From: an uncultured Candidatus Saccharibacteria bacterium
GTDB taxonomy: Bacteria; Patescibacteriota; Dojkabacteria; J137
Reading direction: 5' to 3'
Length of the DNA: 64,000 nt
Assembly: GCA_964561155.1 (NCBI GenBank)
Contig: CAZLOI010000003.1
Span: forward strand, 16,832-80,831
The notes beneath the pieces are model-generated. The model saw only the letters and a program-made list of their open reading frames with translations, searched no databases and was not told where the DNA came from. Made by a program: the position numbers and the translations under genes. Of the stretch, positions 6,179-51,626 are shown piece after piece. Positions within the stretch are counted from its first letter, which is position 1; each line of letters opens with the position of its first letter.

Positions 6179-6199
6179 TCAACAACTATAGAGTTTAGA

Positions 6200-6226
6200 A
6201 CGCACCAGAAATGGTGCGTTTTTTTA
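6200..6226 (+). terminator. Rho-independent terminator after the helicase gene
   Basis: ACGCACC-agaaat-GGTGCGT hairpin followed by T7. Confidence 0.7.
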
Positions 6227-6232
6227 TACTTA

Positions 6233-6802: not shown

Positions 6803-6825
6803 CTTGTGTTGTATAATACAGCACT

Positions 6826-7347: not shown

Positions 7348-7410
7348 CTTCTCTTTTACTAAACCGCCCTTATCGCATATAATAAGTTACTAACTGTTAA
7401 AAACATAATT

Positions 7411-7875: not shown

Positions 7876-7896
7876 TCTCCTTAAGATTTAAAGTAA

Positions 7897-7926
7897 AAGA
7901 TCCCAAGAAATTGGGATCTTTTTGTT
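7897..7926. terminator. Bidirectional rho-independent terminator between convergent ssb and the TrmH-like gene
   Basis: AAGATCCCAA-gaaa-TTGGGATCTT 10-bp perfect hairpin flanked by A-run and T-run. Confidence 0.75.
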
Positions 7927-21234: not shown

Positions 21235-21343
21235 TATAAGTATCAATTGATCATCAATTTATTACTAGAAAGACTAGCAAAGTAGTAGTATTAAAATAGA
21301 AAAAGAGTAAACTAAAATTGATATAAAACAACTTATAAAAAAC

Positions 21344-22468: not shown

Positions 22469-22478
22469 ATTCATGCTA

Positions 22479-22514
22479 CTTGACACCGACATTTAGAAAT
22501 GATTGAATGTTAAG
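22479..22514 (+). promoter_or_regulatory. Conserved upstream element (copy B), about 57 nt upstream of paralog 3
   Basis: CTTGACACCGACATTTAGAAATGATTGAATGTTAAG. Confidence 0.35.
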
Positions 22515-22570
22515 TAAGCCGATTTGGAAAATACTATTTACCTATTCCGAAATCTGATACACTAAAATAT

Positions 22571-23671: not shown

Positions 23672-23765
23672 TATGGAGAATAAATACTAATCGCCTTGCT
23701 CATTCGCAATTAATTTTGTAAACTTATGAGCACAATATACTCTCTTATTTAGAAGCAGTTAAAAT

Positions 23766-24872: not shown

Positions 24873-24929
24873 TTCTTCGTAATATTTAGATCTTGCTCTT
24901 TGTACTACTAACTATTAAACTAGGTTAGT

Positions 24930-26496: not shown

Positions 26497-27750
26497 ATGA
26501 AAAAACTGTTCTTTGTCAGTATTCCGCTTACTGCTGTAATCGTATGGTTTATGGAAGGCTTTCTACTTAGCTACTTTCAGGATTCATCTATTCAATCAAA
26601 TCTTGCAAAGCTAACTGGATTACTAGGTATCGCCTTTATGACGACTAGCTTTGTAACATCTTCAAGACTTGATCTCATTGAGAAACTATTTGGAGGATTA
26701 GATATAGCATACAAATACCACAAACTTGCAGGCAAGATTGCATATGTATTCATATTCATGCATCCAGTGCTTCTTGTTTTAAGAAGAGCTGTGAGTGTAG
26801 ATTCCATAAAGACATTCTTCGTAGCTGGAACAACACAAAGTACAACACTTAATACTGGTATCGTTGCATTCTACGTACTATCACTTTTAATACTGTTCAC
26901 ATTGGTTCTTAAACTACCATATCAATTCTGGAAGAAGACACATAGATTCATGATTGTAGTATTCCTACTCTCTTCTTGGCATATAATCGTTGCGGGAAAC
27001 GATATATCTAAAGTATACGGAGGTATATTACTTGTAGTTGGAGTATTTGCTTTTATCTACAGAGACTACATATATGGTCACTTTGTAAAAAAAAAACTCT
27101 ATCAGGTAGTTGATATTAAAAAGCTTTCTATTTCTACTACCGAAATCTTCCTTAAACCAGTAGGAAAAAGACTTGAATTCAAACCAGGACAATTCGTATT
27201 CATGAAGTTCATGAATTCAAAAACTATTCCTAGTGAAGCTCATCCATTCTCAATGGCTTCAGACAACTCCAAGGATATAATAAGGTTTTCGATTAAGGAA
27301 CTAGGTAACTACTCAGAGATTCTAGATTCAGCAAAGCCTGGCGATATGGTCAAACTAGTAGGACCACACGGTAAGTTCACCCTAGATACATCGATCAAGA
27401 AACAACTATGGATATCAGGAGGTATAGGTACTACTCCATTTCTTTCAATGCTACACGATGCAGAAGATACAGATATTGTCTTCATTCATTCTAATAGGGA
27501 AGAATCAGATGCTGTATATATTAGAGAGATCAGTGGTCTTCTAAATTCGAATTCAAAACTAATTACACATATGTCTGATATCGAAGGATTCATAGATGCA
27601 GAATACTTTAAGAAACATGTACCAGATTACCTAGAACGAACCATATACATATGTGGACCATTTGTAATGATGCATTCCCTAAGCAAAATACTACAAGGGC
27701 TAGGAGTACCAAAGGAGAACATTAGGTTTGAGGATTTCAACTTTAAGTGA
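26497..27750 (+). CDS. NOX/ferric-reductase-like transmembrane flavocytochrome (FRD heme domain + FAD + NAD(P)H binding)
   Basis: His pairs HKLAG...FMH (H-x13-H) and HRF...SSWH (H-x12-H) in TM helices, HPFS FAD motif, GGIGTTPF NAD(P)H motif; ATG 1 nt after the upstream TAA. Confidence 0.75.
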   Translation: MKKLFFVSIPLTAVIVWFMEGFLLSYFQDSSIQSNLAKLTGLLGIAFMTTSFVTSSRLDLIEKLFGGLDIAYKYHKLAGKIAYVFIFMHPVLLVLRRAVSVDSIKTFFVAGTTQSTTLNTGIVAFYVLSLLILFTLVLKLPYQFWKKTHRFMIVVFLLSSWHIIVAGNDISKVYGGILLVVGVFAFIYRDYIYGHFVKKKLYQVVDIKKLSISTTEIFLKPVGKRLEFKPGQFVFMKFMNSKTIPSEAHPFSMASDNSKDIIRFSIKELGNYSEILDSAKPGDMVKLVGPHGKFTLDTSIKKQLWISGGIGTTPFLSMLHDAEDTDIVFIHSNREESDAVYIREISGLLNSNSKLITHMSDIEGFIDAEYFKKHVPDYLERTIYICGPFVMMHSLSKILQGLGVPKENIRFEDFNFK

Positions 27751-35034: not shown

Positions 35035-35649
35035 TTATTGTCTGGAAACCAGGGTCACAAGACCATTATAGACTGGTACTAAATCATGACTACCTATGCT
35101 TGTAGAGTGACTTCCTTTCGGGAACAAAGGATCAACACAGAAATACTTATTCTTTGCGCTATCAAAATATACAACCACTAGATGCCTGCTTTCACTAGGT
35201 AACATTACTGATACCATTGCATACTCGAATTCACCATCCTTCAATTTGTTAAAAACTTCTTCCAATGATATATCTTCAAAGTATTTTGCTTTTAAATCAT
35301 ATAGTCTAAATAGGATCTCGGATATTCTATGGTCATAACCTGCTTTCAAGCTGAACGCAGGCTGGAAAGTTTGATCAGGACCACAAATATAAAATGGTTC
35401 AGAATAAACTTCTTCTGCAGCGCCAAGAGTTATAGGTAAGGTGATCCCACTCTCTAAGTAGTCTCTTTTAGCTACTGCTAGACGATTTTTATGAAGTGCA
35501 CTTAGAAGCTCTACTATTTGTAATGGTAACACTGCAGTCTGAGTCAATTCAGTAACTATCATTGCTACACAGCAAACACCACAGGTAGCTTTTTTCAGAT
35601 CATCATTTTCGAAACTGTCATGTTGATTATAGAAGCTTGATTCTTTCAT
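35035..35649 (-). CDS. Standalone papain-fold C39-like cysteine peptidase domain protein
   Basis: KKATCGVCCVAMIV resembles the C39 Cys motif (DCGxAxLxMI); RHLVVVY...FCVDP resembles the C39 His motif (HFVVL...ADP). Confidence 0.5.
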   Translation of the reverse strand: MKESSFYNQHDSFENDDLKKATCGVCCVAMIVTELTQTAVLPLQIVELLSALHKNRLAVAKRDYLESGITLPITLGAAEEVYSEPFYICGPDQTFQPAFSLKAGYDHRISEILFRLYDLKAKYFEDISLEEVFNKLKDGEFEYAMVSVMLPSESRHLVVVYFDSAKNKYFCVDPLFPKGSHSTSIGSHDLVPVYNGLVTLVSRQ

Positions 35650-36535
35650 CTTTATCTAGTTGATTAAGAATATAATTTGCTAAATGCTTATTGGCCTCGT
35701 GTCCTGGTTTAAGAACCTCGAATCTTCCGATTAAGGCTGCACCTACAAGACCTAAATCTCCAATCATGTCGAGTATCTTATGCCTCACTAACTCTGTATC
35801 ATTTTTTAACGGAGTGATGAATTTATCTTTATTGAATACTATTATGGGTGAGAGCGATGGATCATCCGAAATACCTGGAAATATCTTCTTAACATTCTGC
35901 CAGGCTACACCTTCGTCATCCAATTCAGATCTCATAAAAGATCTTGAAGGAGATATATACCCCAAGTAATTTTCTTTATTAACAACTACTGAATATGATT
36001 GTTTTCCAATTATATTATTAAAATCGATAGTAGCGTTAATTTCATAATAGTCCGAAGGTATTACACGAATATGGGTATCTGTGCTTTCATAGGTAATTTC
36101 TACCTCGTTTGTACAAACAATAGAATGCCGAGCTTGCTCCTGTTGTTTAAGTCCTGCATTTGCTATGAATCTACAGAACTCTTCGGAACTGCTACTTAGA
36201 AATGGTACTTGTCCATTACATAGATCAATGTAGATATTGTCTATGCCCATTCCTCTAATTGCCGAGATAATGTGTTCAATCGTTTTCACCTCTATACCAT
36301 TGGAAGTAAGAGAGGTAGTGTGTGTATATCCATCATCTTTTAGATTTCCGATTACCGCTTTTATTTCCATATTATTAACACTGAAGACAATCCCAGTATC
36401 ACAAGGTGCCGGGCTAAATATAGCCTTACACGTTTCTTTTGAATAAGCAGAGAACCCTGACATCTCAATTGCTAGATCTATCGTCATCTGCTTGGTATTT
36501 GTTTCAATTAATTTGAAAGATTTCATATTATGCAT
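35627..36535 (-). CDS. LpxC-like zinc-dependent N-acetylglucosamine deacetylase
   Basis: TIEHIISAI, VRHKILDMIGDLGLVG and PGHEANKH match the LpxC zinc-ligand and active-site motifs (HKxLD, GH). Confidence 0.75.
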   Translation of the reverse strand: MHNMKSFKLIETNTKQMTIDLAIEMSGFSAYSKETCKAIFSPAPCDTGIVFSVNNMEIKAVIGNLKDDGYTHTTSLTSNGIEVKTIEHIISAIRGMGIDNIYIDLCNGQVPFLSSSSEEFCRFIANAGLKQQEQARHSIVCTNEVEITYESTDTHIRVIPSDYYEINATIDFNNIIGKQSYSVVVNKENYLGYISPSRSFMRSELDDEGVAWQNVKKIFPGISDDPSLSPIIVFNKDKFITPLKNDTELVRHKILDMIGDLGLVGAALIGRFEVLKPGHEANKHLANYILNQLDKDERIKLL

Positions 36536-37424
36536 CTATAAAACATAGTGGGTTTGGGTGTACTAATCTAATACCTACTGTATCTACTATTGCTGTCACA
36601 TCGAATAATCCTCTGGTGACAACTCGACCACCATAATCACATTGCCTAAATCCTCCTCCAAGTGCAATAGAATATGCTCCATCCGTAGCAGACCCCCATT
36701 GGCCTCCAGGATTCCTAGTATGTCCCAGAGCAAAAATAGAAACATTACCTGTTGCGTGATGTAGACCCAGATGATTAGTTGGAACTTCATTAGAATCTAC
36801 AGGTAAAGTTCCTCCTTCGTCTCCATATTCTTTGTCGAATGCGTTAAAGCTGTTCTGTTTACCTTTGATAGGTTTGCCATCTTGTTGATATGGATACTTC
36901 CAATGTTCAGGAGCAGCAAAGGCGACATATTCTGGCTCGGTCGGTAGACGGAAATTCAATCCAGATCGTTTATTCAACCACATACAATATGATATTGCTT
37001 TGCCATAAGTAAGACAAGTTACTGGATGTCTATCACCAGGTGATGTTGATGGTCGTTTATGACCTGGATCGAACTGTTCGAATTCCTCGTTTGTAACAGT
37101 AAACTTACTTACATAAAAGCTTGGGATATTAATTATCTCTCTAACTGGCGTTTCATTTGCTCGACTTCCCTCCAGTTTACATGGCAAGCCTTTATCTTCA
37201 CCCATGTGAACTTTTGAAGGAGAACATAATACAAAGCCTTGTGCTGTTAAAGCTTCTGCTATTTTATGGGCTTCTTGTGTTGAAGTTAATTCCAAAGTTC
37301 TTAGTAGTTGTTGCTCTCTCCAACTCAATCTTTGAGCAAAAACATTAATTTGCTCTGCATAGTCTAATAGATTTGGCTTACTGGTTACTTCATTCATGAG
37401 ATGATAATACATCTCTAAATGCAA
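36528..37424 (-). CDS. FGE-sulfatase (SUMF1/EgtB/PvdO) fold protein
   Basis: VTNEEFEQF, HPVTCLTYGKAISYCMWL and RLPTEPEYVAFAA match formylglycine-generating-enzyme family motifs. Confidence 0.7.
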   Translation of the reverse strand: MHLEMYYHLMNEVTSKPNLLDYAEQINVFAQRLSWREQQLLRTLELTSTQEAHKIAEALTAQGFVLCSPSKVHMGEDKGLPCKLEGSRANETPVREIINIPSFYVSKFTVTNEEFEQFDPGHKRPSTSPGDRHPVTCLTYGKAISYCMWLNKRSGLNFRLPTEPEYVAFAAPEHWKYPYQQDGKPIKGKQNSFNAFDKEYGDEGGTLPVDSNEVPTNHLGLHHATGNVSIFALGHTRNPGGQWGSATDGAYSIALGGGFRQCDYGGRVVTRGLFDVTAIVDTVGIRLVHPNPLCFIDA

Positions 37425-37470
37425 TTATTCATTGTATTACAATACAAATTTATGGAGATTTTTGCGACTA

Positions 37471-39411: not shown

Positions 39412-39993
39412 ATGAGATTATTTATAGCGTTGTATCCACCGCAAAGCTACCTTAAGTACATTACTTCGGTAATGCGGGAGTTTGACAAAGAGAAGAGAAA
39501 TCTTAGGAATGTTGCGTTGGAACAGATCCACGTTACTCTAAAGTTTATTGGTTCTGAAGTTAGTGTTCATAGCTACGAAGCTATATTAGACATGCTTAAG
39601 AAGTTCGAAGGACAATATACAAAGCCTGAGATTAAGAGTCATGCAATTAGACTAGGGTTTCCAGGGCAGATTGATCCTAGACACCTTCTAGTTGAGATTG
39701 AATCTACAGATACTCTATTAGAGCTTTCAGATTCTATTCACAAGCTAATTAAGCACTTGGCTCTACGGGATACTATTAAGTGGAAGGACAAGCAGTTTAA
39801 TGAATTCCATGTTTCTATAGCGAAGTTAAAGGACAGTGCATCTTCAACTAAAGGAAAGGATATAAAGAAGATGGCTGCAGCTCTTAGAACAAAGATGCAT
39901 GAACCTTTCTTTCCTGAGGAGATGGTATTGGTTGAAAGTGTGTTTGAAGACAACGTTCCAAAGTACAAGAAACTAGCTAGTATTAGGCTTTAA
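39412..39993 (+). CDS. thpR: RNA 2',3'-cyclic phosphodiesterase (2H family, LigT/ThpR)
   Basis: Two H-x-T/S-x motifs (HVTLKF and HVSIAKL). Confidence 0.7.
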   Translation: MRLFIALYPPQSYLKYITSVMREFDKEKRNLRNVALEQIHVTLKFIGSEVSVHSYEAILDMLKKFEGQYTKPEIKSHAIRLGFPGQIDPRHLLVEIESTDTLLELSDSIHKLIKHLALRDTIKWKDKQFNEFHVSIAKLKDSASSTKGKDIKKMAAALRTKMHEPFFPEEMVLVESVFEDNVPKYKKLASIRL

Positions 39994-40375
39994 AGTTACT
40001 TAGCTCTACTGCATAGTGGGCTATTTTCTCAGCAACTATTTCCCAGTCTACACTCGAATGGTCTTCACTATGTCTATAGATTACTTCACTTGAATACTCT
40101 AAGAGATCGAAGAATGGTTTGTATGTAAATGCACCAAGATTTAGTTCCTTCGGTAGCTTTCTTATTTGTAATTTACTACCAATCTGAATTAGTTCTTTAA
40201 GAGACAATAGCCCTTTATGGAAGAGCTTGTAGGACCTCAACCAAACACTGCCATACAATGCTTGATCGAAAGTTTGTGTATCTGGTAAGAGTAGTTCGAA
40301 TACAAGATGGACTTTATCTGTATTGAATGGCTTACTATTTATTAGTTCAACTTTTGGCTTATTCAACTTCGTCAT
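39983..40375 (-). CDS. Hypothetical protein (130 aa), last gene of the minus-strand cluster
   Basis: ORF overlaps the histidine kinase stop by 17 nt; no receiver-domain motifs. Confidence 0.35.
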   Translation of the reverse strand: MTKLNKPKVELINSKPFNTDKVHLVFELLLPDTQTFDQALYGSVWLRSYKLFHKGLLSLKELIQIGSKLQIRKLPKELNLGAFTYKPFFDLLEYSSEVIYRHSEDHSSVDWEIVAEKIAHYAVELSNFKA

Positions 40376-42035
40376 CTTCTACTTTTCTCTGTTCCTGCAT
40401 ATTTAGTTGTCCGTTATACAGTGGTAGTCTAATTATGAACTTACTACCCTTCCCTAGTTCACTTTGAACTTCGTAACTACCATCCATAATCTTGGTTAGA
40501 CTGAATGCAACATACAATCCTAATCCAGTTCCTCCTGGCCTTATTACCTGCTTAGTTTCTTCTGGTTTCTCATTTGCTTTAGTTATATATTGATCAACTC
40601 TGTAGAATTTCTTACCAAGTTTCTTTATATCATCTTCTGTCATACCTATACCTGTATCAGCAACTTCAATAGTTAAGTTGTTTTCATCTTTAATCAAGGA
40701 AACCTCTACCTTACCCTTATCAGTATATTTAACAGCATTACTTAGCAAGTTATCTACAATCTCTTGTGTTCTTATCCTATCTGCATATGCCAAGAACTCA
40801 CCAGTAGTATTAAAGAGTACATCGACTCCTTTCTTTGCACCTTCTTTTTTAAATAGTTCTAATGAATCATTAACCACATCCAAAACATCTACTTTTTCAA
40901 ACATAAGTTGGAACCCTCTACTATCTGCTTTTGCTGAAGAAAGTAGTGTTTCAACAAGTCTAACTTCTCGTCTTGCTGATTCCATTGCTATATCTAGATA
41001 CCTTGCCAGTTTTTCTTGAGGAATAGTTCCATTCTTCTTGAACTCCATTTCCATAACACCCAATGAGTTTCTAACAATTGTAATTGGTGTTCTAAGTTCA
41101 TGCCCCATGATATCGATCATATCTTGTTCGTGCTGACGTAAACCTTGCACCTGTTTGTATGCTTTTTCTAATTCTTCTCTCTGTTTTATCTCTTTTACGA
41201 CACCTCTTACAAGTAATACAGATATACCTACAAAGAATACAAGAATTATCAGTTTAATTGCCTGTTCCAGTAGATTATTGCTAAGTGCTAGTATATCTAC
41301 TACTAGTAGCATTCCAACAATTCCTATAAGGAACGATGTTAAGGCAATTTTGACATTCATAAATTTCCTACGGAGAATTGCAACGGCTGTAAATATTATG
41401 AAGAAAATAGCAGCGTAATCACCAAAATGCTGATATCGTACTGTTCCTAAAATATCCGGTAGTAAAATATTGAAGACTATATTCAAGAAAATTGCTAGGA
41501 AAGTTCCAACAAGAAAGTAAGCCACTTTACGTCTCTCAATTGAAGGTAACTTGAAGTATCTTGTGATTAGTAGAATCACAACAACTAGATTAATTAATAG
41601 AACTAATGTACTAAATAACTCATAGCCGGGGCCAAATGTAAACTCATTCCCCCACTCCTGACGTGTTACTGTGACAATCATTAGATCAGTCAACAGGAAT
41701 AATATTGAAAATGTTAAACATATCACAAATAATGCAGCTCTGAAAATCCTATTTACAATTTTTAGGAAAGATTCAATATAAAGCATGTATTCAGCAAATA
41801 GAAAGAACGCGACAAATGCCCCATTGATATTGTAGAAAAGAAGCGCTAAGGAAGAATTTGGTTCAACGTAGCCCAGATAAGCAAAATTTACCCATCCTAA
41901 AATTGTTACTGTCATTACACTGAGCCAGCGATGCACAGGATCTTTAGTAGAATTGGCCACTATAATGATTAACAGAAATATACTTCCTGTATTAATTACT
42001 GTTAACACAATTATATCTATAATATTTTGAAACAT
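40359..42035 (-). CDS. Sensor histidine kinase with about 270-aa multi-TM (7TM-type) N-terminal sensor domain
   Basis: HisKA H-box MGHELRTPIT, HATPase_c N/G boxes (LLSNAVKYT, EVADTGIGM, GGTGLGL); no response regulator nearby. Confidence 0.8.
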   Translation of the reverse strand: MFQNIIDIIVLTVINTGSIFLLIIIVANSTKDPVHRWLSVMTVTILGWVNFAYLGYVEPNSSLALLFYNINGAFVAFFLFAEYMLYIESFLKIVNRIFRAALFVICLTFSILFLLTDLMIVTVTRQEWGNEFTFGPGYELFSTLVLLINLVVVILLITRYFKLPSIERRKVAYFLVGTFLAIFLNIVFNILLPDILGTVRYQHFGDYAAIFFIIFTAVAILRRKFMNVKIALTSFLIGIVGMLLVVDILALSNNLLEQAIKLIILVFFVGISVLLVRGVVKEIKQREELEKAYKQVQGLRQHEQDMIDIMGHELRTPITIVRNSLGVMEMEFKKNGTIPQEKLARYLDIAMESARREVRLVETLLSSAKADSRGFQLMFEKVDVLDVVNDSLELFKKEGAKKGVDVLFNTTGEFLAYADRIRTQEIVDNLLSNAVKYTDKGKVEVSLIKDENNLTIEVADTGIGMTEDDIKKLGKKFYRVDQYITKANEKPEETKQVIRPGGTGLGLYVAFSLTKIMDGSYEVQSELGKGSKFIIRLPLYNGQLNMQEQRKVEDDEVE

Positions 42036-42039
42036 ATGG

Positions 42040-42906
42040 TTATGTTAATAATCTTCCAATAAATATAATGATGGGCCAGAAGGTGGATTCACCATCTACA
42101 ACTATATAAGAGAATAATCTTAAGTTCTCTGCCTGTGCAGATAGCCCTTTATTTAGGTAAATGATACCACTAATAAATGTAAATCCAAGAAATATTGCAA
42201 CTGTAGGTAAGTAACCTAGGTATACACCAAGTAGTATAGGTAACAAAGACAATAGATTTATAATGTGCAACAGCTTTATTGTTTTCTCTCTTCCTAGGTA
42301 TACAGGAACTGTTCTTACGTCATCTGCTTTATCGCTTTCAATATCCTTTATGTCGAAGAAAATATTATTCACAACTTCGCGCATAAAAACGAATAGCGAG
42401 ACAAAGATAAAAGGCGTTAGAGAGTCAATTACGTAGGCCAGAGGTACTACTAGAACTAGAATAGCCCAAAAGAATGCAGTATAGAAATTTTTAAACCCGA
42501 GTACCTGTACCCATTTGAAGTACTCTGTATACAGTATCCCGCTAAACACTATTACCAGCACAAGAATTGATGTCATCCAGTTTGTAAAAACTAATAATAT
42601 CCCAAGCAGCACAATACATAAATAGAATACGAATTTCATTCGAGTCTTCTTTTCGATTACATGTTTTACTCTTTCTGGGTTACTAATAGCATCTGCGTTT
42701 AGTTCACGCAAATAGTTATATCTATATACGATCTGGGGGATTAGATAGACAATAAATAGTAGAGCAGTATTAATCCAAAGTCCAAAGATCATTATAGTTC
42801 CTAATACTATACCAACTGTCCCTAAAGAGACTAGATGCGCACCATACAATAGTTCTAGTCCAATTCCTCCTAACTTCTTCCTTATGTAGCTTTGCTGTAT
42901 CTTCAT
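42040..42906 (-). CDS. UbiA-family aromatic/polyprenyl prenyltransferase (membrane)
   Basis: Multi-TM protein with Asp-rich FDIKDIESDKADD motif. Confidence 0.55.
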   Translation of the reverse strand: MKIQQSYIRKKLGGIGLELLYGAHLVSLGTVGIVLGTIMIFGLWINTALLFIVYLIPQIVYRYNYLRELNADAISNPERVKHVIEKKTRMKFVFYLCIVLLGILLVFTNWMTSILVLVIVFSGILYTEYFKWVQVLGFKNFYTAFFWAILVLVVPLAYVIDSLTPFIFVSLFVFMREVVNNIFFDIKDIESDKADDVRTVPVYLGREKTIKLLHIINLLSLLPILLGVYLGYLPTVAIFLGFTFISGIIYLNKGLSAQAENLRLFSYIVVDGESTFWPIIIFIGRLLT

Positions 42907-42987
42907 TGATCCAATTTATCAAAAAAGTTAGAAATTAACAATGTATACGACTTCCTTAGATCGATTTCTAAGATTGCAATTGTATTG

Positions 42988-43791
42988 TTATAGTTGAACT
43001 CTTTTTTCCAATACATTAATTTTATTCTCTAGTTCCCTGTACTTCAAGGCATTCATTATTGATGATGAAACATGTTCAACAAAAGAACTTAAAATCTCAA
43101 ACTCATTATTGAAATTATCTCCGTTATTCTTTGAGAATATTATTGCCCCAATAGCGGTGTTATCAACAATCATTGGAAATGAGATTACGCAACTAGTACC
43201 ATTAAATCTTTGTATTGTATCTGATATTTTGTCTGAAAAAACTTTCTTTGAAAAATCGCGCAACAATTTACTTGTTAGTGGTTGCCTCTCAATGATAGAT
43301 TTAACAACAAAATTCTCTATTTCTCTTAGTGAGATCTTTAAAGTGTTGAACGCCTGAGGAAGGATCTGATTTACAAATTTGGTATACCAAGTATCTGTCT
43401 GTGTCTTAGCATATACATACTGATCATCACAAAGGAATACTAAACAGCCAAATAAATTCAGATCGTAGGCAATTTGATTAGCAGCATTCTGAAGCAAATG
43501 ATCGATATCTAGAGAACTGCTAAGCTTTTTTGCCAGCTCTACAAGTCCGGGTAGTTCATTAACTTCCAGCTCAAATAATGACATTGCGTCATAAGATTTA
43601 AGTTCTAACGCATCAATTATTTTTCTCAATGTTTCCTTTGTTGGATTAACTTGTCCACTCTCAATTCTTGACATACTACCAGGCGAAGCTTCAATTTCAA
43701 GCTCTAGCTCAAACTGACTTTTCCCAGCCCTTTTCCTAAAGTTCCTAATTTTCTCGCCTATTTCTGTTTCTAGTTGCTTATTTGTTTCCAT
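42988..43791 (-). CDS. XRE-family HTH + GAF-like sensor domain transcription regulator (paralog 1)
   Basis: IGEKIRNFRKRAGKSQFELELEIEASPGSMSRIESGQ HTH; C-terminal domain with AIGAIIFSK and FVEHVSSSIMNA GAF-like motifs. Confidence 0.55.
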   Translation of the reverse strand: METNKQLETEIGEKIRNFRKRAGKSQFELELEIEASPGSMSRIESGQVNPTKETLRKIIDALELKSYDAMSLFELEVNELPGLVELAKKLSSSLDIDHLLQNAANQIAYDLNLFGCLVFLCDDQYVYAKTQTDTWYTKFVNQILPQAFNTLKISLREIENFVVKSIIERQPLTSKLLRDFSKKVFSDKISDTIQRFNGTSCVISFPMIVDNTAIGAIIFSKNNGDNFNNEFEILSSFVEHVSSSIMNALKYRELENKINVLEKRVQL

Positions 43792-44563
43792 ATTTTAGTA
43801 CATTAACCTCTGCTTGTAAGACTTCATATCTTTTCGCATTCATAATCGCTATTCCAACATGCTCTGCAAACACCTTGAGTACATTAATCTCTGCTTCAAA
43901 TTTATCAATAATCCCTTTAGAAAACAGTATTGCACCTATTGCCCTAGAATTGACTTCAATGGGAAAACAAAGCGTACATTTGGTACCATTCAGCTTCTGA
44001 ATCAAGTCCGCAACTTGATTTGGAATGAAACCTGAAGTGAAATTATTAAATACTGTACTGTACTGTGGAACCTTCTCTCTAATAGACTTGATGACGTAGT
44101 TATTGGGATTTTTTAACATCGATGCCTTTAGTTTTTTTAGAGGAATTGGCAACATATCCTGTATCTTTTTTGTGTGTACATTCTGTGACATCGCTTCAGC
44201 ATAGACATAATCACCTTCACACAGTAGTAATACACTTCCTAAGAAACCTAATTCATTAGTTATTTCATTAACTGCATATTGAAGTACTTCTTCAAAATCT
44301 AAGCTGCTACTTAACTTTTTTGCTAGATTAACCATTTTTGGGAACTCATCAAAATTCAGATTAAAGAGGGACCCAGCTTCAAAAACCTTGAGATCCAGAA
44401 CTTCAATTACCTTTTGAAGCGTTTCCTTCGTAGGATTAACCTGACCTGATTCAATCCTAGAGATACTTCCAGGTGACGCATTTATTCTAAGCTCAAGTTC
44501 GAACTGGCTTACTCCAGCTCTTTTCCTGAATCTCCTTATTTTCTCCCCTACTGCATTGTCCAT
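43778..44563 (-). CDS. XRE-family HTH + GAF-like regulator (paralog 2); start taken at MDNAVGEK by alignment to paralog 1
   Basis: VGEKIRRFRKRAGVSQFELELRINASPGSISRIESGQ; colinear with paralog 1 along the whole length (AIGAILFSK, FAEHVGIAIMNA). Confidence 0.55.
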   Translation of the reverse strand: MDNAVGEKIRRFRKRAGVSQFELELRINASPGSISRIESGQVNPTKETLQKVIEVLDLKVFEAGSLFNLNFDEFPKMVNLAKKLSSSLDFEEVLQYAVNEITNELGFLGSVLLLCEGDYVYAEAMSQNVHTKKIQDMLPIPLKKLKASMLKNPNNYVIKSIREKVPQYSTVFNNFTSGFIPNQVADLIQKLNGTKCTLCFPIEVNSRAIGAILFSKGIIDKFEAEINVLKVFAEHVGIAIMNAKRYEVLQAEVNVLKYGNK

Positions 44564-44590
44564 ATATACTGACAAAATTTCTAAGATTAT

Positions 44591-44618
44591 ACACAATAAA
44601 TGCTCAAAAACATTGTGT
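44591..44618. promoter_or_regulatory. Inverted repeat ACACAAT-N14-ATTGTGT overlapping an extended -10 (TGTGTATAAT on the minus strand) upstream of HTH-GAF paralog 2; candidate operator
   Basis: Palindrome read directly from the sequence; TGTGTATAAT on the minus strand about 25 nt before the ATG. Confidence 0.3.
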
Positions 44619-44630
44619 CGTAATACAAAT

Positions 44631-45707
44631 TTATCTATCTCTAGAAATAATGTAGTCACTTAAACCTATGAAGAACTCAATTGAAGAGTGTTTACTGTCA
44701 AAATTACTTAGTAACGAATCCTTAGCTACTTCAACAGAAGCTCTCGCCATCTTTCTTGCATATGCCAATGCGCCTGAATCTTCGACAATTTTTTGTGCTA
44801 TTAACCACTCTTCTTTCCCAATATCTTGATTTCCTAGTATCCACTCTAACTTAGATCTACTATCTTCATCTGTGTTGTAACTAGCATAAACAACCAGCAA
44901 GGTTCTCTTTCCTTCCTTTAAATCTGAAAGTACAGGCTTTCCAAGGGTTGCTTCATCTCCGTATAATCCCAATATGTCATCTACGATTTGGTATGTAATA
45001 CCGCATGGTGTAGCAAACATCGATAGACCTTTAAGATCTTCTTCAGAAGCACCACCTAATATAGCTCCTACGACCATGGGATTTTCAAATGTATACTTTC
45101 CTGTTTTGTATCTATATATTTGAAGAACATCTTCTTCTTCGAGCTTGTCATGAACACCTCCCCAGACATCAATAAATTGTCCGTAACAAGTATTTATTAT
45201 AGTTCTCTGGATATGATGAGAAACTAGAAGCTTTCTCTTGTCATCAAACTTCGTTTCTAGAATTAACTTGTTCGCTAAGTGCGCTATGGCGTCCCCTACA
45301 ACAACAGCGATTGAGTTTCCAAAATGTATCCATTCAGGTTGAGAAAAATCTAAGTTTGAATTTCCATTGGCGTACATCCAATGTATCGTCTTCTTTCCAT
45401 GTCTAGTATCCGCTCTGTCCATGACATCATCGTGAATGAGCAAGTATAGATGATATAGTTCAATTGCTGCAGCTATCTTGTATATATCTTCCTCCTCTTT
45501 GTCTGTGAAAAGCTTGTATGAATAATACACGAGGGCTCCTCTTAGACCTTTACCGCCAGTCGCTATCGACAAAAGGTTGTCGTATAAATCTTTAAAAAGC
45601 GGGGAGATTTCTGAAGCTACAATAGCCTCATTACGTAGAGTCTCTAAGACGATTGCCTCTACCTTGGTAGCCACCTCTTTTAACCCTTTCTTGATATCCA
45701 TTGTCAA
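44631..45707 (-). CDS. Polyprenyl (isoprenyl) diphosphate synthase
   Basis: First Asp-rich motif LIHDDVMD, second Asp-rich motif VDDILG, conserved FQ...D.. and GK residues. Confidence 0.8.
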   Translation of the reverse strand: MTMDIKKGLKEVATKVEAIVLETLRNEAIVASEISPLFKDLYDNLLSIATGGKGLRGALVYYSYKLFTDKEEEDIYKIAAAIELYHLYLLIHDDVMDRADTRHGKKTIHWMYANGNSNLDFSQPEWIHFGNSIAVVVGDAIAHLANKLILETKFDDKRKLLVSHHIQRTIINTCYGQFIDVWGGVHDKLEEEDVLQIYRYKTGKYTFENPMVVGAILGGASEEDLKGLSMFATPCGITYQIVDDILGLYGDEATLGKPVLSDLKEGKRTLLVVYASYNTDEDSRSKLEWILGNQDIGKEEWLIAQKIVEDSGALAYARKMARASVEVAKDSLLSNFDSKHSSIEFFIGLSDYIISRDR

Positions 45708-47535: not shown

Positions 47536-48810
47536 TTACTGTTCATCATCAAAACCAGGTCCATCCTCGAAATTATCGTTCGGATCTTCAGAATCTTCAT
47601 CTGAGTCATCATCTTCTAGCGAGAATAAGCTTTTAAGTGCTACTCGTAGCCCCAAAGAATCTATAAATTCTAGCTCTCGCAAGATTGCATATCTTCTTAA
47701 ACAGTTTATATATTCGTAGAACTGAGCTTCATCTACAACTCTCAATCTTTCATATAAATACTCTAGATTTTCATCTAAGTGAAGCACATCATGCAGTAAA
47801 TCCATTGTTTTCTCATACTCAGGATCTGGATCCTCATTTCCCAAATAATATAAACCTTGCTTGAATATATCTTCATCTGTAACTATCAAGGAATCCCAAG
47901 GAGTAAACTCCAACTCTTCATCTATGAGTCTTCTTTTAAGTAACTTCGCTGATTCCAAAGATATGCTTAATCCAAGTCCCATGACAGCTTCTACAATTAG
48001 TTCAGATTCATCCCAGAATAGCATCATGATTTCAGAAATAGCCGCCATGTATTCGGCAACCAATCCTGGAATGATATCTTGTATTTCTGCTTCATCGCCT
48101 CCTTCCAAAGTATTAAAGTATCTAATTCGATTCTTTAAAAAATTGTTTACGTATATATAAACCTGAACATCTGACTGAGCATTATTACTCGGATCTATGG
48201 TGAATTCTGAGAATCTTGTTTCATTTCCATCCCGTAACTCATCTACCAAGTTCTGAAAGTATGTGTAGTTTAAGCCCATTAGTATTGGTGATAGCTCCTC
48301 GGGTTCTATATGTAAAGAATGGAGTATTATTTCATCATCTCCTTCTGCATAGACTGCCTCTGCAGCCTGTTTAGCTAACTCAGCTTCTTTTATATTCTGC
48401 TGCTCAATAATAAAGTCCTCAATAAACCTCTCCTTCCTCTTTTGAATCTTGAGTGCTCCGCTCTCACCAAAATTCATTCCTAGCTTTTCTGTATTAGCTA
48501 ATATCTGCCTAATCACTTCTTCTGGGGCATTAATCAGCTGTGACAATATATGGTGGAGTATCTCTGTAATCTTTTTGTTATTCAAAGCTACAATTTTTGT
48601 ATGAATCCACTTCTCTATTCCAGAACCTTTCTCGGTATCTTTCAATCTTTGTTTTAATTCTGTGATCTGAGACCTAAGGTTTAATTGATCTTGTTTTATG
48701 ATTTCTGGGATATCGTAGGCGGCGAATTGGAAGAAGTAGTTTTCAAAGAGATCAAGTATTTCACTTGAAGGTATAGCTTCGATTAAGTTCAACATAACGG
48801 ATAATATCAT
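47536..48810 (-). CDS. Hypothetical acidic cytoplasmic protein (424 aa) with poly-Asp/Glu C-terminus
   Basis: ORF; C-terminus LEDDDSDEDSEDPNDNFEDGPGFDDEQ. Confidence 0.45.
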   Translation of the reverse strand: MILSVMLNLIEAIPSSEILDLFENYFFQFAAYDIPEIIKQDQLNLRSQITELKQRLKDTEKGSGIEKWIHTKIVALNNKKITEILHHILSQLINAPEEVIRQILANTEKLGMNFGESGALKIQKRKERFIEDFIIEQQNIKEAELAKQAAEAVYAEGDDEIILHSLHIEPEELSPILMGLNYTYFQNLVDELRDGNETRFSEFTIDPSNNAQSDVQVYIYVNNFLKNRIRYFNTLEGGDEAEIQDIIPGLVAEYMAAISEIMMLFWDESELIVEAVMGLGLSISLESAKLLKRRLIDEELEFTPWDSLIVTDEDIFKQGLYYLGNEDPDPEYEKTMDLLHDVLHLDENLEYLYERLRVVDEAQFYEYINCLRRYAILRELEFIDSLGLRVALKSLFSLEDDDSDEDSEDPNDNFEDGPGFDDEQ

Positions 48811-50713: not shown

Positions 50714-50746
50714 AGTAGGGACTAAAATGTCTCTACTCTTTTTTTG
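50714..50746. terminator. Bidirectional terminator hairpin between convergent genes
   Basis: AGTAGGGAC-taaaat-GTCTCTACT (9 bp, one G-U) followed by CTTTTTTTG; overlaps the last codons of the minus-strand gene. Confidence 0.4.
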
Positions 50747-51168
50747 AATCTAGCAATAGATTCCTTAGCTTCAGGTATATCTAGATGATCTCTAAAGAAA
50801 TTGTCCCATCCTTTGCCGTTATTTAGACCAGGTGCAAAGTGAGTGAAATCTTCTGGTATAAAATCACTAAAATCTAACTTAAGATATCCCCACAATGTAA
50901 AACCTTCTGTATCATCAGTTTTCGTATATCCGTGTTTTGCTGCTTTATCCTCAATGATATTAAAGACTACATGTACGTTCATGAATCTATATTCATGCAA
51001 AGCCTCATATCTGGATGCAGTGTTTGAACAACTAATCTGTACCCGCGAATTGTCGAAATCTCTTGCAAGATCCATACGTCCAGTCTCAGGAAACTTGGAT
51101 ATTTCTAAAAGAGTGAATATCTTGAGAACAACCTCGTGTAATGTTTTATTATAGATCTCCTTTATCAT
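50722..51168 (-). CDS. Hypothetical protein (148 aa)
   Basis: ORF with no recognisable motif. Confidence 0.4.
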   Translation of the reverse strand: MIKEIYNKTLHEVVLKIFTLLEISKFPETGRMDLARDFDNSRVQISCSNTASRYEALHEYRFMNVHVVFNIIEDKAAKHGYTKTDDTEGFTLWGYLKLDFSDFIPEDFTHFAPGLNNGKGWDNFFRDHLDIPEAKESIARFKKRVETF

Positions 51169-51238: not shown

Positions 51239-51514
51239 TTACCTATTTGGCCAGTTCGGATCGTCGACGTTGTCGCCACGACGCGTGTCATATTGGGCAT
51301 CCTCTTTCGAGGTTCCTTCACCGCGAATATACACGACATCGCCACCCTTATCGTAGACGATATGACCGTGGTTGGAATCATTGTCCTTTCCGATGATCAC
51401 GGCTCGGGCATCGTCACTTGAGCGGGTGTAATGTTTATCCACCTCACCAGTGTTGCGATCATCCCTCTGCTTGTCATTCGAATCCGACTTCTGATTACCC
51501 TTCGGGTCACTCAT
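51239..51514 (-). CDS. Small hydrophilic protein (91 aa from the ATG) in a compositionally foreign, GC-rich (about 52%) cassette; only gene in the window with a strong SD
   Basis: AGGAGG 6 nt upstream of ATG 51514 (complement); protein MSDPKGNQKSD...GHIVYDKGGDVVYIRGEGTSKED...; codon usage rich in GAC, CGC and ATC unlike neighbours. Confidence 0.5.
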   Translation of the reverse strand: MSDPKGNQKSDSNDKQRDDRNTGEVDKHYTRSSDDARAVIIGKDNDSNHGHIVYDKGGDVVYIRGEGTSKEDAQYDTRRGDNVDDPNWPNR

Positions 51515-51626
51515 TGTGAGCCTCCTCACACTATTACCAGGCCAATATACACTGGTACAAAGAGTTTACTCTGGAAGAATCATTTCAACATTGTCATGCA
51601 ATACAAATTTTGGGACTTTTTTTAAT

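Follow-up and report, generated by a model that had tools for sequence, protein, structure and literature searches.

A Patescibacterial locus joining isoprenoid enzymes, a 7TM histidine kinase and XRE-GAF regulators: a candidate make-and-sense cassette for an isoprenoid product

The window analysed here is a 64,000-nucleotide stretch of DNA from a candidate-phyla bacterium of the Patescibacteria (CPR). On its minus strand, at 39983–45707, lie six tightly packed genes, for which the ORF list gives exactly the coordinates of an initial annotation made from the sequence. They encode an isoprenyl diphosphate synthase (IDS), two XRE-HTH+GAF paralogues (XRE-GAF A and B), a UbiA-fold prenyltransferase, a HisKA_7TM histidine kinase and a small protein, p130. 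Gaps of 67 nt and 81 nt separate IDS from XRE-GAF A and XRE-GAF B from UbiA, respectively, and only 4 nt lie between UbiA and the kinase; the XRE-GAF A and B genes overlap by 14 nt and those of the kinase and p130 by 17 nt. Dozens of independent loci carry this gene set, and the arrangement is therefore far from chance. Genes for an M23 peptidase and LemA flank the locus.

The IDS (44631–45707, minus strand) is a short-chain trans-isoprenyl diphosphate synthase matching Pfam PF00348 with 188 bits. It has a first motif DDVMD, with Tyr at −5, and a second motif DDILG. Its best NCBIfam matches are IdsA, GGPP and FPP synthases, each below cut-off, its nearest solved structures are FPP and GGPP synthases, and its product is predicted to be C15–C20 in length. 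It may be a plain housekeeping FPP/GGPP synthase serving undecaprenyl phosphate, and its adjacency need not mean dedication.

XRE-GAF A (261 aa; 43778–44563, minus strand) probably starts at the ATG at 44563 rather than the GTG at 44659; XRE-GAF B (267 aa) occupies 42988–43791 on the same strand. The two are 49% identical, in keeping with their description as paralogues in the initial annotation. Both score above threshold for HTH_3 or HTH_31 in Pfam (41.2 bits for HTH_3 in A), while GAF_2 is sub-threshold in the single sequences (22.4 bits in A and 19.7 bits in the other regulator, against 28.6). The GAF assignment is nevertheless upheld by three concordant lines of evidence: the family profile matches GAF crystal structures (3oov, E = 1.4e-8); the AlphaFold model of XRE-GAF B (pLDDT 91.5) has GAF domains or GAF-containing structures as all of its 50 best PDB matches listed by Foldseek; and the XRE GAF domains align with Pfam-positive GAF domains of a relative's kinase (32% identity, E = 2e-21). 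By sequence, the kinase GAF and XRE GAF domains form one subfamily. We know of no GAF domain that binds an isoprenoid.

The UbiA-superfamily intramembrane prenyltransferase (42040–42906, minus strand) belongs to an uncharacterised subfamily and matches PF01040 with 59.8 bits (threshold 34.2). Its first motif reads YxYNxxRExxxDxxSNPER and its second FFDIKDIESD. The fold is confirmed by an AlphaFold model (pLDDT 92.6, pTM 0.90), for which the best Foldseek matches are DGGGP synthase 6m31 and ApUbiA; in profile searches of the PDB the nearest solved relatives are DGGGP synthase (E = 1.6e-8) and chlorophyll synthase (E = 1.7e-4). No NCBIfam equivalog is reached, those for MenA, UbiA and DGGGPS included, the best score being 53 bits against a cut-off of 238. 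The quinone role offered in the initial annotation is unlikely: no quinone-pathway gene was found within the window or the neighbourhoods examined, and no equivalog was approached. An archaeal-type ether lipid is a possible product; genes for GGGP synthase, G1P dehydrogenase and CDP-archaeol synthase were likewise not found in the window or in those neighbourhoods.

The histidine kinase has a sensor half (residues 1–285; 41181–42035, minus strand) that matches PF16927, HisKA_7TM, with 33.8 bits (threshold 28.6). Nine TM helices are predicted—those of HisKA_7TM and two more—and the conserved WG and FGDY motifs fall within loops whose predicted orientation is outward, on a topology read by eye via the positive-inside rule. 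The kinase core (40359–41180, minus strand) comprises Pfam HisKA and HATPase_c with complete H, N, G1 and G2 boxes. The kinase gene is translationally coupled through the 17-nt overlap to that of p130 (39983–40375, minus strand), a small conserved orphan protein with no Pfam or NCBIfam match. In strains L136 and L138 p130 is 82–83% identical and the overlap is retained. Only five homologues were found among 1.8 billion representatives. A homologue with 33% identity lies in a locus with a terpene synthase (L137). A receiver-domain identity for p130 was ruled out (hhalign probability 0.1%).

An operator-like palindrome, AAATTTGTATTACGACACAATG (44611–44632, minus strand), precedes the start codon of XRE-GAF A by about 65 nt, with a TATAAT box after it. 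The palindrome, TTGTATT-N-AATACAA, occurs at this and two other promoters of the window. One copy (37430–37451, minus strand) is directly upstream of an operon encoding an FGE-sulfatase-like protein, LpxC and a 204-aa protein, with an equivalent upstream of the FGE-sulfatase gene in L053. The other (51589–51610, minus strand) precedes a 91-aa ORF (about 51239–51514) and a gene for a 148-aa protein (50722–51168), and has an equivalent in L136. The 17-base motif has three exact intergenic matches in the window against 0.05 expected. In eight loci the conserved palindrome precedes the first XRE-GAF gene, and among sites of the form ATTTGT-N8-ACAATG in 1.23 Mb of fetched loci, 15 of 16 fall within loci bearing XRE-GAF genes. 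From this co-occurrence in sequence we infer that the XRE-GAF proteins are the binders of the palindrome TTGTATTGCAATACAA.

The interpretation given in the initial annotation is partly supported, and every one of its domain calls was correct (Pfam, profiles, AlphaFold). Three features absent from it prove decisive for the locus: universal pairing of UbiA with the 7TM sensor, swapping of enzyme and sensor modules, and an allelic specificity block. A homologue of the 7TM sensor directly follows the UbiA subfamily in every bacterial locus with sufficient flank (more than 25), often with overlapping stop and start codons, and at some loci the 7TM protein stands beside UbiA without any kinase domain. 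The pairing crosses domains of life. In methanogens the UbiA homologue adjoins a multi-TM kinase in 9 of 14 loci, and the Methanobacterium neighbours have the architecture HisKA_7TM-PAS-HisKA_2 (57 and 50 bits, both above threshold), with a kinase core from a different family.

In loci lacking UbiA, the orthologous kinase core bears tandem GAF sensors; that of L051, for example, is 80.7% identical to the core here and carries tandem GAF domains in place of the 7TM sensor. The slot of UbiA is then filled by a class I terpene synthase (L055, L137, L058) or a geranylgeranyl-reductase-like flavoprotein (L067, L079), or is empty (L051). At these loci the kinase adjoins XRE-GAF arrays, with IDS within reach in most. 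Arrays of XRE-GAF genes near IDS, a terpene synthase or GGR-like enzyme, and a GAF-kinase are found in at least nine loci, in varied gene orders. The accessory genes found elsewhere code for further isoprenoid enzymes: an IPP isomerase (its 207 bits exceed the cut-off), a methyltransferase of CFA/GPP-methyltransferase-like type and a reductase of the GGR family. No glycosyltransferase or flippase adjoins UbiA in any locus examined.

Comparison with the near-identical strain L136 reveals a hypervariable block at 41200–43650 (minus strand), delimited by sliding nucleotide identity and spanning the GAF domain of XRE-GAF B, UbiA and the 7TM sensor. Nucleotide identity is 0.41–0.61 within the block, against 0.90–0.98 in the flanks, and the breakpoints coincide with the HTH|GAF and 7TM|HisKA domain junctions. 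Flank proteins (AspRS, LemA, IDS, LigT, a methyltransferase and PGK) are about 97% identical, and the value of 97.5% for IDS places this enzyme outside the variable block. Identity is also high in the HTH of XRE-GAF B (86%, residues 1–60), the kinase core (87.9%) and p130 (82%). The block, in contrast, shows saturated divergence at 42–50% protein identity; its parts are only 16–50% identical, with 16–40% over residues 121–267 of XRE-GAF B, 44.6% for UbiA and 41.9% for the sensor half. In XRE-GAF B the HTH is thus kept between strains while the GAF domain falls inside the block. XRE-GAF A is much less variable than XRE-GAF B; it shares 85% of its residues with the L136 protein, falling to 60–70% over GAF residues 121–210, and is mostly deleted in L138. 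Synonymous divergence rises from 0.22–0.30 in the flanks to 1.0–2.3 next to the block, and dN/dS is at most 0.23 throughout, which indicates that the alleles are old and functional. The allele of the window occurs in four more assemblies (L138–L141), with conserved flanks verified in L138; the second type is known from one assembly (L136). By analogy with known specificity loci, inheritance of the block as a unit points to a matched signal-maker and receptor.

As the initial annotation had stated, the window holds no response regulator: none was found with a receiver HMM across the 64 kb, nor by a Pfam scan of almost every ORF of 110 aa or more (all but AspRS and some overlapping shadow ORFs). 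Twelve more distant loci do encode, beside the orthologous IDS-UbiA-kinase operon, a single-domain receiver with intact Asp, Asp and Lys residues and no DNA-binding output domain. These receivers, of a kind which that annotation itself named as refuting evidence, count against its proposal that the kinase signals to the HTH-GAF proteins; speaking for it, no receiver-bearing locus has XRE-GAF genes and no XRE-GAF-bearing locus has an adjacent receiver. In this lineage the kinase probably passes its phosphoryl group to a receiver whose gene lies in another part of the genome, though because receivers and XRE-GAF genes share no locus examined, the XRE-GAF proteins may have replaced the kinase output here.

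The locus can best be explained, at a probability of roughly one half, as a modular cassette that makes an isoprenoid product and senses it through its own matched sensors. The general idea of an isoprenoid-linked sensing circuit, already voiced in the initial annotation, gains strong comparative support from the conserved but permuted synteny and the co-inherited hypervariable block. In such a cassette, IDS would supply a C15–C20 prenyl diphosphate, and the UbiA-fold enzyme, a distant relative of DGGGP synthase, would turn this prenyl donor into a membrane-associated prenylated compound. This compound or a close derivative would be the ligand of the nine-TM (HisKA_7TM) sensor, whose kinase is translationally coupled, while the GAF domain of XRE-GAF B, and probably that of A, would read the compound or its cytoplasmic precursor. 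The XRE-GAF proteins would then bind TTGTATT-N-AATACAA before their own operon and at least two other promoters, those of the FGE-sulfatase/LpxC operon and the small-protein gene. Enzyme, membrane sensor and GAF pocket would be swapped or kept as one co-adapted allelic block, giving strain specificity types as in the agr and comQXP pherotype loci. What the sequences show are the domain identities, the UbiA–7TM pairing, the exchange of modules, the allelic block and the enrichment of the motif; that the UbiA product is the sensor ligand we infer, and the purpose may be cell-cell communication or recognition rather than internal feedback.

Two-component genes often adjoin their target genes, and the locus might simply encode a standard two-component system that watches over a housekeeping pathway for membrane prenyl lipids. 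The kinase would sense the general state of the envelope or membrane and signal to a receiver elsewhere that tunes expression of IDS and UbiA, with the XRE-GAF proteins as unrelated one-component regulators whose genes lie in the operon by coincidence. The intact receivers at the 12 loci fit this account, as does a highly conserved IDS that could be housekeeping, yet we consider it unlikely: it leaves unexplained why loss of the 7TM sensor exactly tracks loss of UbiA, why an enzyme-sensor-GAF block has reached saturated divergence in an otherwise 97%-identical genome, and why XRE-GAF arrays stand beside isoprenoid enzymes and a GAF-kinase in at least nine loci, and the receivers at the 12 loci lack a DNA-binding output. 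It is typical of surface-structure loci, such as those for O-antigen and teichoic acid, to form hypervariable islands between genomes that are otherwise nearly identical, and the variability here could instead mirror selection on a surface lipid rather than signalling specificity. The UbiA product would then be a surface prenyl lipid or anchor diversifying under pressure from phages, hosts or competitors, with sensors that only monitor lipid homeostasis and no communication between cells. Since the product must still be the sensors' ligand, this differs from the make-and-sense cassette only in purpose. LpxC and the FGE-sulfatase-like gene in the putative regulon suggest envelope functions, and the flanking M23 peptidase and LemA genes are in line with them; the soluble terpene synthase and cytoplasmic GAF-kinase variants (L055, L137, L058) are unlike surface-lipid systems, however, and with no glycosyltransferases or flippases at the UbiA loci we rate it as rather improbable.

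Less credible still is a true orphan kinase whose output passes straight to the XRE-GAF proteins, by phosphorylation or GAF–GAF contact, in place of a response regulator. The complementary distribution of receivers and XRE-GAF genes and the receiver-free 64-kb window would suit it, and heteromeric contacts are conceivable because the GAF domains in the kinases of relatives share a subfamily with the XRE GAF domains. The kinase of the window itself, however, lacks a GAF domain that could serve as a partner, its orthologues at other loci adjoin classical receivers, and the view is confined to 64 kb of the genome; to our knowledge, phosphotransfer from HisKA to a GAF or HTH domain has no precedent. 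There is equally little to commend the reading that IDS and UbiA together make a respiratory quinone (MenA/UbiA-like) or an archaeal-type diether lipid (DGGGP synthase), to which we give the smallest chance of all. The confirmed UbiA fold with DGGGP synthase as closest solved relative, the resemblance of IDS, with its aromatic −5 residue and insertion-free first motif, to the type I GGPP synthases of archaea and the sharing of the UbiA subfamily with methanogens favour it, but scores fall far under all MenA, UbiA and DGGGPS cut-offs, the first Asp-rich motif is altered, the pathway partner genes are absent from the window and neighbourhoods examined, and a bulk-lipid enzyme is not expected to be 45% identical between otherwise 97%-identical strains.

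If the locus does make and sense its own isoprenoid product, it would represent an undescribed isoprenoid-based sensing system in a tiny Patescibacteria bacterium, and several of its parts can be set against known ones. The UbiA enzyme shares with archaeal DGGGP synthase (PDB 6m31, 7bpu), its best profile and Foldseek match, a nine-helix fold and the second motif DxxDxxxD; it differs in its low identity (16–18%), in having NxxxExxxD for NDxxDxxxD, and in having no GGGP synthase partner. HisKA_7TM (PF16927) has been recorded in bacterial and archaeal kinases, with its ligand not known (PMC5847659). The N-terminal domain here matches it above the gathering threshold, but carries two further TM helices and has UbiA as its obligate neighbour; literature searches found no published link of HisKA_7TM to UbiA enzymes or isoprenoids. 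The regulators resemble XRE one-component regulators in joining an N-terminal XRE HTH (with SinR-, PlcR- and HipB-like matches) to a domain at the C terminus that senses small molecules. RRNPP receptors such as PlcR, however, use TPR domains and peptide signals, and although the GAF domain resembles those of NifA and PtsP, NifA and FhlA are GAF-regulated sigma-54 activators; no earlier description was found of XRE+GAF proteins in tandem arrays beside isoprenoid enzymes.

The closest systems in overall design are agr and ComQXPA. In agr, hypervariability extends over the enzyme that processes the signal, the signal itself and the sensory half of the receptor kinase, and the breakpoints fall within the gene for the kinase. 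The staphylococcal AgrB/AgrD/AgrC groups thus share with this locus a block of enzyme and sensor half and a breakpoint within the kinase gene, but agr has a peptide thiolactone signal and the LytTR response regulator AgrA, and has no isoprenoid enzymes or GAF regulators. In ComQXPA, the enzyme and the N-terminal membrane sensor of the kinase vary strongly from strain to strain, in contrast to a conserved cytoplasmic kinase domain (PMC4008528). The present locus has the same mosaic, and in the Bacillus quorum-sensing system, too, an isoprenoid-handling modifying enzyme adjoins a multi-TM histidine kinase. ComQ, however, is a soluble or peripheral polyprenyl-synthase-like protein (PF00348) that prenylates the ComX peptide, whereas here the variable enzyme has the intramembrane UbiA fold and the PF00348 protein is the conserved one. 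The 81-nt and 4-nt gaps around UbiA leave no room for a ComX-like precursor ORF, and in place of the ComQXPA arrangement this locus has a HisKA_7TM sensor, no ComA-type regulator and an XRE-GAF protein reaching into its variable block.

The six minus-strand genes between 39983 and 45707 lie exactly where the initial annotation had placed them. The isoprenyl diphosphate synthase (IDS; 44631–45707; PF00348/polyprenyl_synt, 188 bits) is followed by two regulators with HTH and GAF domains, XRE-GAF A (43778–44659; likely start ATG 44563, 261 aa) and XRE-GAF B (42988–43791), and then by a UbiA-fold prenyltransferase (UbiA; 42040–42906; PF01040), a histidine kinase (40359–42035) and a 130-aa ORF, p130 (39983–40375). 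Their spacing is operon-like, with a 14-nt overlap between A and B, a 4-nt gap between UbiA and the kinase, and a 17-nt overlap between the kinase and p130. The kinase contains HisKA_7TM (33.8 bits, threshold 28.6), HisKA (38.2 bits) and HATPase_c (88.8 bits) domains, and its H, N and G boxes are readable (MGHELRTP, DNLLSNAVKYT, DTGIGM, GGTGLGL). No NCBIfam equivalog cut-off was approached by any of the six proteins.

The window has a GC content of ~36%, and its remaining genes, among them MurG, PBP2, MraW, aminoacyl-tRNA synthetases, PrgI/T4SS-pilin-like proteins, LemA and an M23 peptidase, are typical of Patescibacteria, a placement that follows from relatives, the nearest named ones being MAGs of Dojkabacteria and Saccharibacteria. 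At least two Ser/Thr/Ala-rich ORFs of a tandem run (20122–21234 and 22571–23671) are 77% identical, have signal-peptide-like N-termini and match no Pfam family; the ORF between them (21344–22468), judged informally, has sequence stretches in common with them. Next come an unrelated ORF of 368 aa and a protein of 521 aa whose C-terminus is T4SS-pilin-like, and the genes of this region (20122–26495) may form an array for surface or pilus proteins.

The IDS carries a first motif DDVMD and a second motif DDILG, the latter of the same variant type as the DDVLG aligned at that position in a solved FPP synthase (8f8f). Its best PDB matches are FPP and GGPP synthases, and it has the features of a short-chain trans-isoprenyl diphosphate synthase. 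A Tyr at −5 of the first motif, with no insertion, presumably likens it to archaeal type I GGPP synthases under the chain-length rules. UbiA scores 59.8 bits against PF01040 (gathering score 34.2), and its AlphaFold model (pTM 0.90) is matched by Foldseek to 6m31, 4od4 and 4tq3 (DGGGP synthase, ApUbiA and AfUbiA; TM-scores 0.60–0.73), so that Pfam and the predicted all-helical fold of 8–9 TM segments both place it in the UbiA superfamily. Its second Asp-rich motif is intact and invariant (D185, D188 and D192 in FFDIKDIESD). The first reads YxYNxxRExxxDxxSNPER (N64, E68, D72), where the +1 Asp of the canonical NDxxDxxxD is absent and a Glu occupies +4, a variant kept throughout the subfamily; prenyltransferase activity is plausible for an enzyme with these motifs.

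By its sequence, this UbiA belongs to a distinct subfamily. The best equivalog is PRK13591, at 53 bits against a cut-off of 238, and the NCBIfam models for DGGGPS (30–37 bits, cut-offs 278–353) and MenA (19–29 bits, cut-offs 277–555) score far lower than required; archaeal homologs likewise fall below the named equivalog cut-offs, and an exact-sequence database look-up with the window UbiA gave no match. GGGP synthase, G1P dehydrogenase and quinone-ring genes were found neither among the Pfam-scanned ORFs of the 64-kb window (nearly every one from 110 aa upwards) nor in ~50 related neighbourhoods. The window does encode a NOX/ferric-reductase-like membrane flavoprotein (26497–27750; Ferric_reduct, FAD_binding and NAD_binding), unexpected in that respiratory-chain and quinone genes are not visible in the 64 kb of the genome seen.

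Both regulators match HTH_3/HTH_31 (41.2 and 30.1 bits, threshold 23), and the HTH of the family matches SinR, P22 C2 and HipB. On single sequences GAF_2 stays below the Pfam threshold. A profile of the 36-member family matches GAF crystal structures (3oov, E = 1.4e-8) together with the SinR HTH, and for the AlphaFold model (pLDDT 91.5) the 50 top-ranked PDB matches listed are all GAF or GAF-containing proteins, with target TM-scores of up to 0.79. The GAF domain and the paralogy of A and B (49% identical), both proposed earlier, are thereby borne out. The XRE-GAF family is lineage-restricted, single contigs carrying several of its paralogs, and copy number ranges from 1 to 5 among close relatives. 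In L138 (Logan SRR19577260), an assembly with the window-type allele, a deletion of ~640 bp at ~666–805, corresponding to ~43800–44450 of the window, has removed most of XRE-GAF A and left its first 46 codons abutting XRE-GAF B.

Comparison with L136, a strain with identical gene order and a near-identical background, reveals a hypervariable block within the cluster. The flanking proteins are highly similar in the two strains (AspRS 97.4%, LemA 98.4%, IDS 97.5%, LigT 97.9%, MTase 97.1% and PGK 97.4% identical), as are, to a lesser degree, XRE-GAF A (85%), the kinase core (residues 286–558, 87.9%) and p130 (82%). Identity is ~50% for XRE-GAF B, 44.6% for UbiA and 41.9% for the kinase sensor (residues 1–285). 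At the nucleotide level, sliding identity is 0.90–0.98 in the flanks and 0.41–0.61 from ~43650 to ~41200. Binned protein identity places the breakpoints at two domain junctions: HTH|GAF in regulator B, where residues 1–60 are 86% and residues 121–267 are 16–40% identical, and 7TM|HisKA in the kinase, which is 23–56% identical up to residue 270 and 76–100% beyond. XRE-GAF A shows a smaller dip, to 60–70%, in its GAF core. Within the kinase core, nucleotide identity also dips to 0.74–0.80 at 40500–40750, in the comparisons with both L136 and L138. A second fast-evolving gene lies near the cluster at 47536–48810: this 424-aa ORF, with an acidic C-terminus and no Pfam match, is 78% identical to its L136 ortholog, and its neighbours are 94–98% identical.

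Synonymous divergence climbs from 0.22–0.30 in the flanks to 1.0–2.3 beside the block, with dN/dS of at most 0.23; because of this, the block alleles are regarded as old and functional rather than decaying. Positive selection as the cause of the block would call for dN/dS above 1, and is disfavoured by the values of 0.23 or less found wherever dN/dS is measurable, the block itself being saturated. Two allele types are seen in a 97%-identical background. A chimeric metagenome assembly is unlikely as the origin of the block: both alleles have the same conserved flanks on either side, their reading frames are intact and of equal length, and the window-type allele occurs in five assemblies (the window and L138–L141). 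In L138, where flanks were compared, these are the same as in the window, and UbiA and the 7TM sensor are 87.5% and 96.5% identical to those of the window; together with the recurrence of the window-type allele, this argues against chimerism.

A scan of species-representative genomes recovered 47 loci with this UbiA subfamily, in Patescibacteria (Saccharibacteria, Dojkabacteria, Berkelbacteria and Paceibacterota) and in methanogens (Methanobacterium and Methanocella). Pairing was assessed with the window proteins as queries against every ORF of the fetched loci, supplemented by precomputed annotations; phmmer and jackhmmer searches of these loci recovered the 7TM homologs, a word-indexed homolog search with the 7TM region alone having returned one match. 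A homologous 7TM N-terminus directly follows UbiA in every bacterial locus with enough flank (>25); in a few loci one gene stands between them, mostly a methyltransferase and, in L042, a short unannotated reverse-strand ORF. The partner is usually a full kinase, is a 7TM-GAF-kinase in three loci (L016, L026 and L044) and is a stand-alone 7TM protein in four (L008, L019, L030 and L035). What stays constant beside UbiA is the 7TM sensor and not a particular kinase core. The IDS adjoins in most loci, in the order IDS-UbiA-HK or UbiA-HK-IDS, and some loci add an IPP isomerase (207 bits, over the cut-off), a CFA/GPP-methyltransferase-like enzyme or a geranylgeranyl-reductase-family flavoprotein.

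In archaea, the UbiA homolog adjoins a multi-TM kinase in nine of 14 loci, and the Methanobacterium neighbours are HisKA_7TM-PAS-HisKA_2 kinases (Pfam HisKA_7TM, 57 and 50 bits). The presence of the same enzyme–sensor pairing in Archaea implies transfer of the module between domains. In six Methanobacterium MAGs (L011, L017, L020, L027, L028 and L031) the UbiA homolog and such a kinase lie side by side at ~4700–7900. Alignment of the sensors shows that WG and FGDY motifs are kept, in loops predicted to face outward; no catalytic-looking charged residues are conserved in this alignment, a pattern more in keeping with a receptor than with an enzyme. One dojkabacterial kinase (L005, 7795–10323) is 842 aa long and matches the 7TM profile over residues 16–560, which suggests that its sensor domain is duplicated.

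The XRE-GAF loci fall into several arrangements. In the window, L053, L136 and L138, the IDS is followed by one to three XRE-GAF genes, UbiA and the 7TM kinase. In L055 and L137, XRE-GAF arrays precede a class I terpene synthase and a GAF-GAF kinase, and in L058 an IDS and XRE-GAF array precede a 765-aa two-domain terpene synthase and a GAF protein within which the contig ends. L067 and L079 combine XRE-GAF genes with a GGR-like flavoprotein, an IDS and a GAF kinase, while L051 has an IDS, five XRE-GAF genes and a GAF-GAF kinase. L051 occupies the same chromosomal position as the window locus (LemA-M23-IDS ... LigT-MTase), and its kinase core is 80.7% identical to that of the window; its sensor is a tandem GAF (32% and 26% identical to the GAF of XRE-GAF B) instead of 7TM, and UbiA is absent. 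These contexts, together with the sensor swap without UbiA in L051, indicate that membrane enzymes are accompanied by membrane sensors, and that cytoplasmic GAF sensors occur where the enzyme is soluble or missing. All the larger loci have XRE-GAF arrays adjoining the sensors, and most have an IDS nearby.

That the window lacks a response regulator, as the initial annotation stated, holds: a receiver HMM applied to all reading frames and Pfam searches of nearly every ORF from 110 aa upwards detected no receiver domain in the 64 kb, nor any quinone gene, GGGP synthase or G1P dehydrogenase. No cognate response regulator is adjacent in the XRE-GAF-type relatives either. In 12 other loci, however, the orthologous operon does have a single-domain receiver beside it. 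In L004–L007, L142 and the P0006 locus it lies immediately upstream of the IDS; L036, L042 and L048 have it divergent from the IDS; and in L038, L040 and L041 it comes straight after the kinase. These receivers match Pfam Response_reg (E ~1e-21) and retain intact Asp/Asp/Lys residues. Such adjoining receivers are what the initial annotation had named as refuting its further proposal, that of an unconventional output from the kinase to the HTH-GAF proteins. The two arrangements are mutually exclusive, in that XRE-GAF loci never have an adjacent receiver and receiver loci never have XRE-GAF genes. In L004 (2678–3208), L005, L006, L142 (7949–8485) and P0006, a conserved protein of 174–189 aa always precedes the receiver. 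It has no Pfam match, is probably a coiled-coil, and is a candidate output partner of the single-domain receiver.

p130 is 82–83% identical, with the same kinase overlap, in L136 and L138, and a homolog (33% identical) lies inside the terpene-synthase-type locus L137. Its relatives number only five among 1.8 billion representatives. The idea that it is a degenerate receiver is rejected on a receiver-HMM E of 2.7, an hhalign probability of 0.1% and the absence of any solved relative in the PDB; it also shows no similarity to the 174-aa gene at the same position in L053, which counts against it further. p130 is a real gene and a lineage-specific component of the system.

In the window, L136, L138, L051 and L053, a palindrome precedes the first XRE-GAF gene by ~65 nt; it is also found upstream in L055, L058 and L067. 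Three exact copies of the extended 22-nt motif, AAATTTGTATT-N5-ACAATG, occur in the window against 0.05 expected, all intergenic and on the minus strand: at 44611–44632, upstream of the XRE-GAF operon; at 37430–37451, upstream of an FGE-sulfatase-like/LpxC/204-aa operon; and at 51589–51610, upstream of a hydrophilic 91-aa ORF (~51239–51514) and a 148-aa gene. The core TTGT-N8-ACAA occurs eight times in the window (2.3 expected), and in the 1.23 Mb of loci fetched, those with XRE-GAF genes account for 15 of the 16 ATTTGT-N8-ACAATG sites. The motif consensus is a perfect palindrome, TTGTATTGCAATACAA. In L053 a copy again precedes the FGE-sulfatase gene, and extra copies in L053 and L136 lie at equivalent sites. 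From this distribution we infer that the palindrome is the putative XRE-GAF operator, with a regulon reaching beyond the cluster. Another candidate operator, the 10-mer TCTTAGAAAT found upstream of XRE-GAF A and UbiA, occurs at chance frequency when one mismatch is allowed (18 against 16.7 expected) and is not conserved in relatives; it was set aside in favour of the TTGT-N8-ACAA palindrome. A scan for sigma-70 promoters and terminators gave chance-level results. The LpxC homolog (Pfam, 197.8 bits) and the FGE-sulfatase-like gene form one operon at 35627–37424, and are immediately downstream of the kinase cluster in L053. An LpxC is surprising here, as the presumed Patescibacterium is not expected to make lipid A.

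The data themselves establish the domain identities, the UbiA–7TM pairing, the module swapping, the allelic block and the motif statistics. The most economical scheme has four parts. IDS and UbiA together would yield a prenylated product associated with the membrane; this putative ligand, or a near precursor of it, would be recognised by the 7TM sensor and by the GAF pocket of XRE-GAF B (probably that of A too); the three parts that set specificity would be inherited as one co-adapted cassette; and the XRE-GAF proteins, with DNA binding and the direction of signalling both presumed, would couple ligand occupancy to transcription at the palindromic operator. The purpose may be cell–cell communication or recognition, or private feedback on an envelope lipid. 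At a probability of roughly 0.3, the locus may exemplify a form of isoprenoid-based communication, or of kin- or host-recognition, that would be truly new as a class, with pherotype-like allelic diversity, in Patescibacteria and, via the shared UbiA–7TM module, in Methanobacterium-type methanogens. Small, type-specific prenylated or terpenoid signals made by the UbiA-fold enzyme or a terpene synthase would be read by a HisKA_7TM kinase or GAF sensor, and in this lineage XRE-GAF with p130 would replace the single-domain receiver output.

Bacteria of the candidate phyla are minimal-genome obligate epibionts and, to our knowledge, almost nothing is known of how they sense partners or kin; we know of no such signalling in Patescibacteria or in these methanogens. 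No description was found in the literature of a UbiA–HisKA_7TM link, of XRE-GAF arrays beside isoprenoid enzymes or of isoprenoid signalling in Patescibacteria. If the proposed conserved module of UbiA and 7TM sensor is correct, the orphan HisKA_7TM sensor family gains its first candidate ligand class, the UbiA subfamily a functional context, and GAF domains a suggested new type of ligand. The allelic block provides two natural sets of enzyme, sensor and GAF domain in one genetic background, which makes the hypothesis directly testable, and the predicted operator and regulon (its own operon, the LpxC/FGE-sulfatase operon and a small protein) offer concrete experimental read-outs. Some methanogens are hosts of Patescibacteria, so that sharing of the module makes cross-domain exchange or eavesdropping possible.

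In agr systems, the enzyme that modifies the signal diversifies together with the kinase's sensor half, and the kinase core is conserved. The same holds for comQXP (PMC4008528). The present locus is alike in having a co-inherited hypervariable block over the enzyme and the kinase sensor half, next to a conserved kinase core. It differs in its enzyme and sensor families and in having neither a precursor peptide gene nor a response regulator: the intergenic gaps of 4–81 nt hold no small ORF for a precursor peptide, and a DNA-binding response regulator is absent. On sequence evidence, it resembles ComQXPA and agr in population-genetic architecture while being a member of neither, and we rate it as a putative polymorphic cassette of signal enzyme and receptor kinase, built from new parts.
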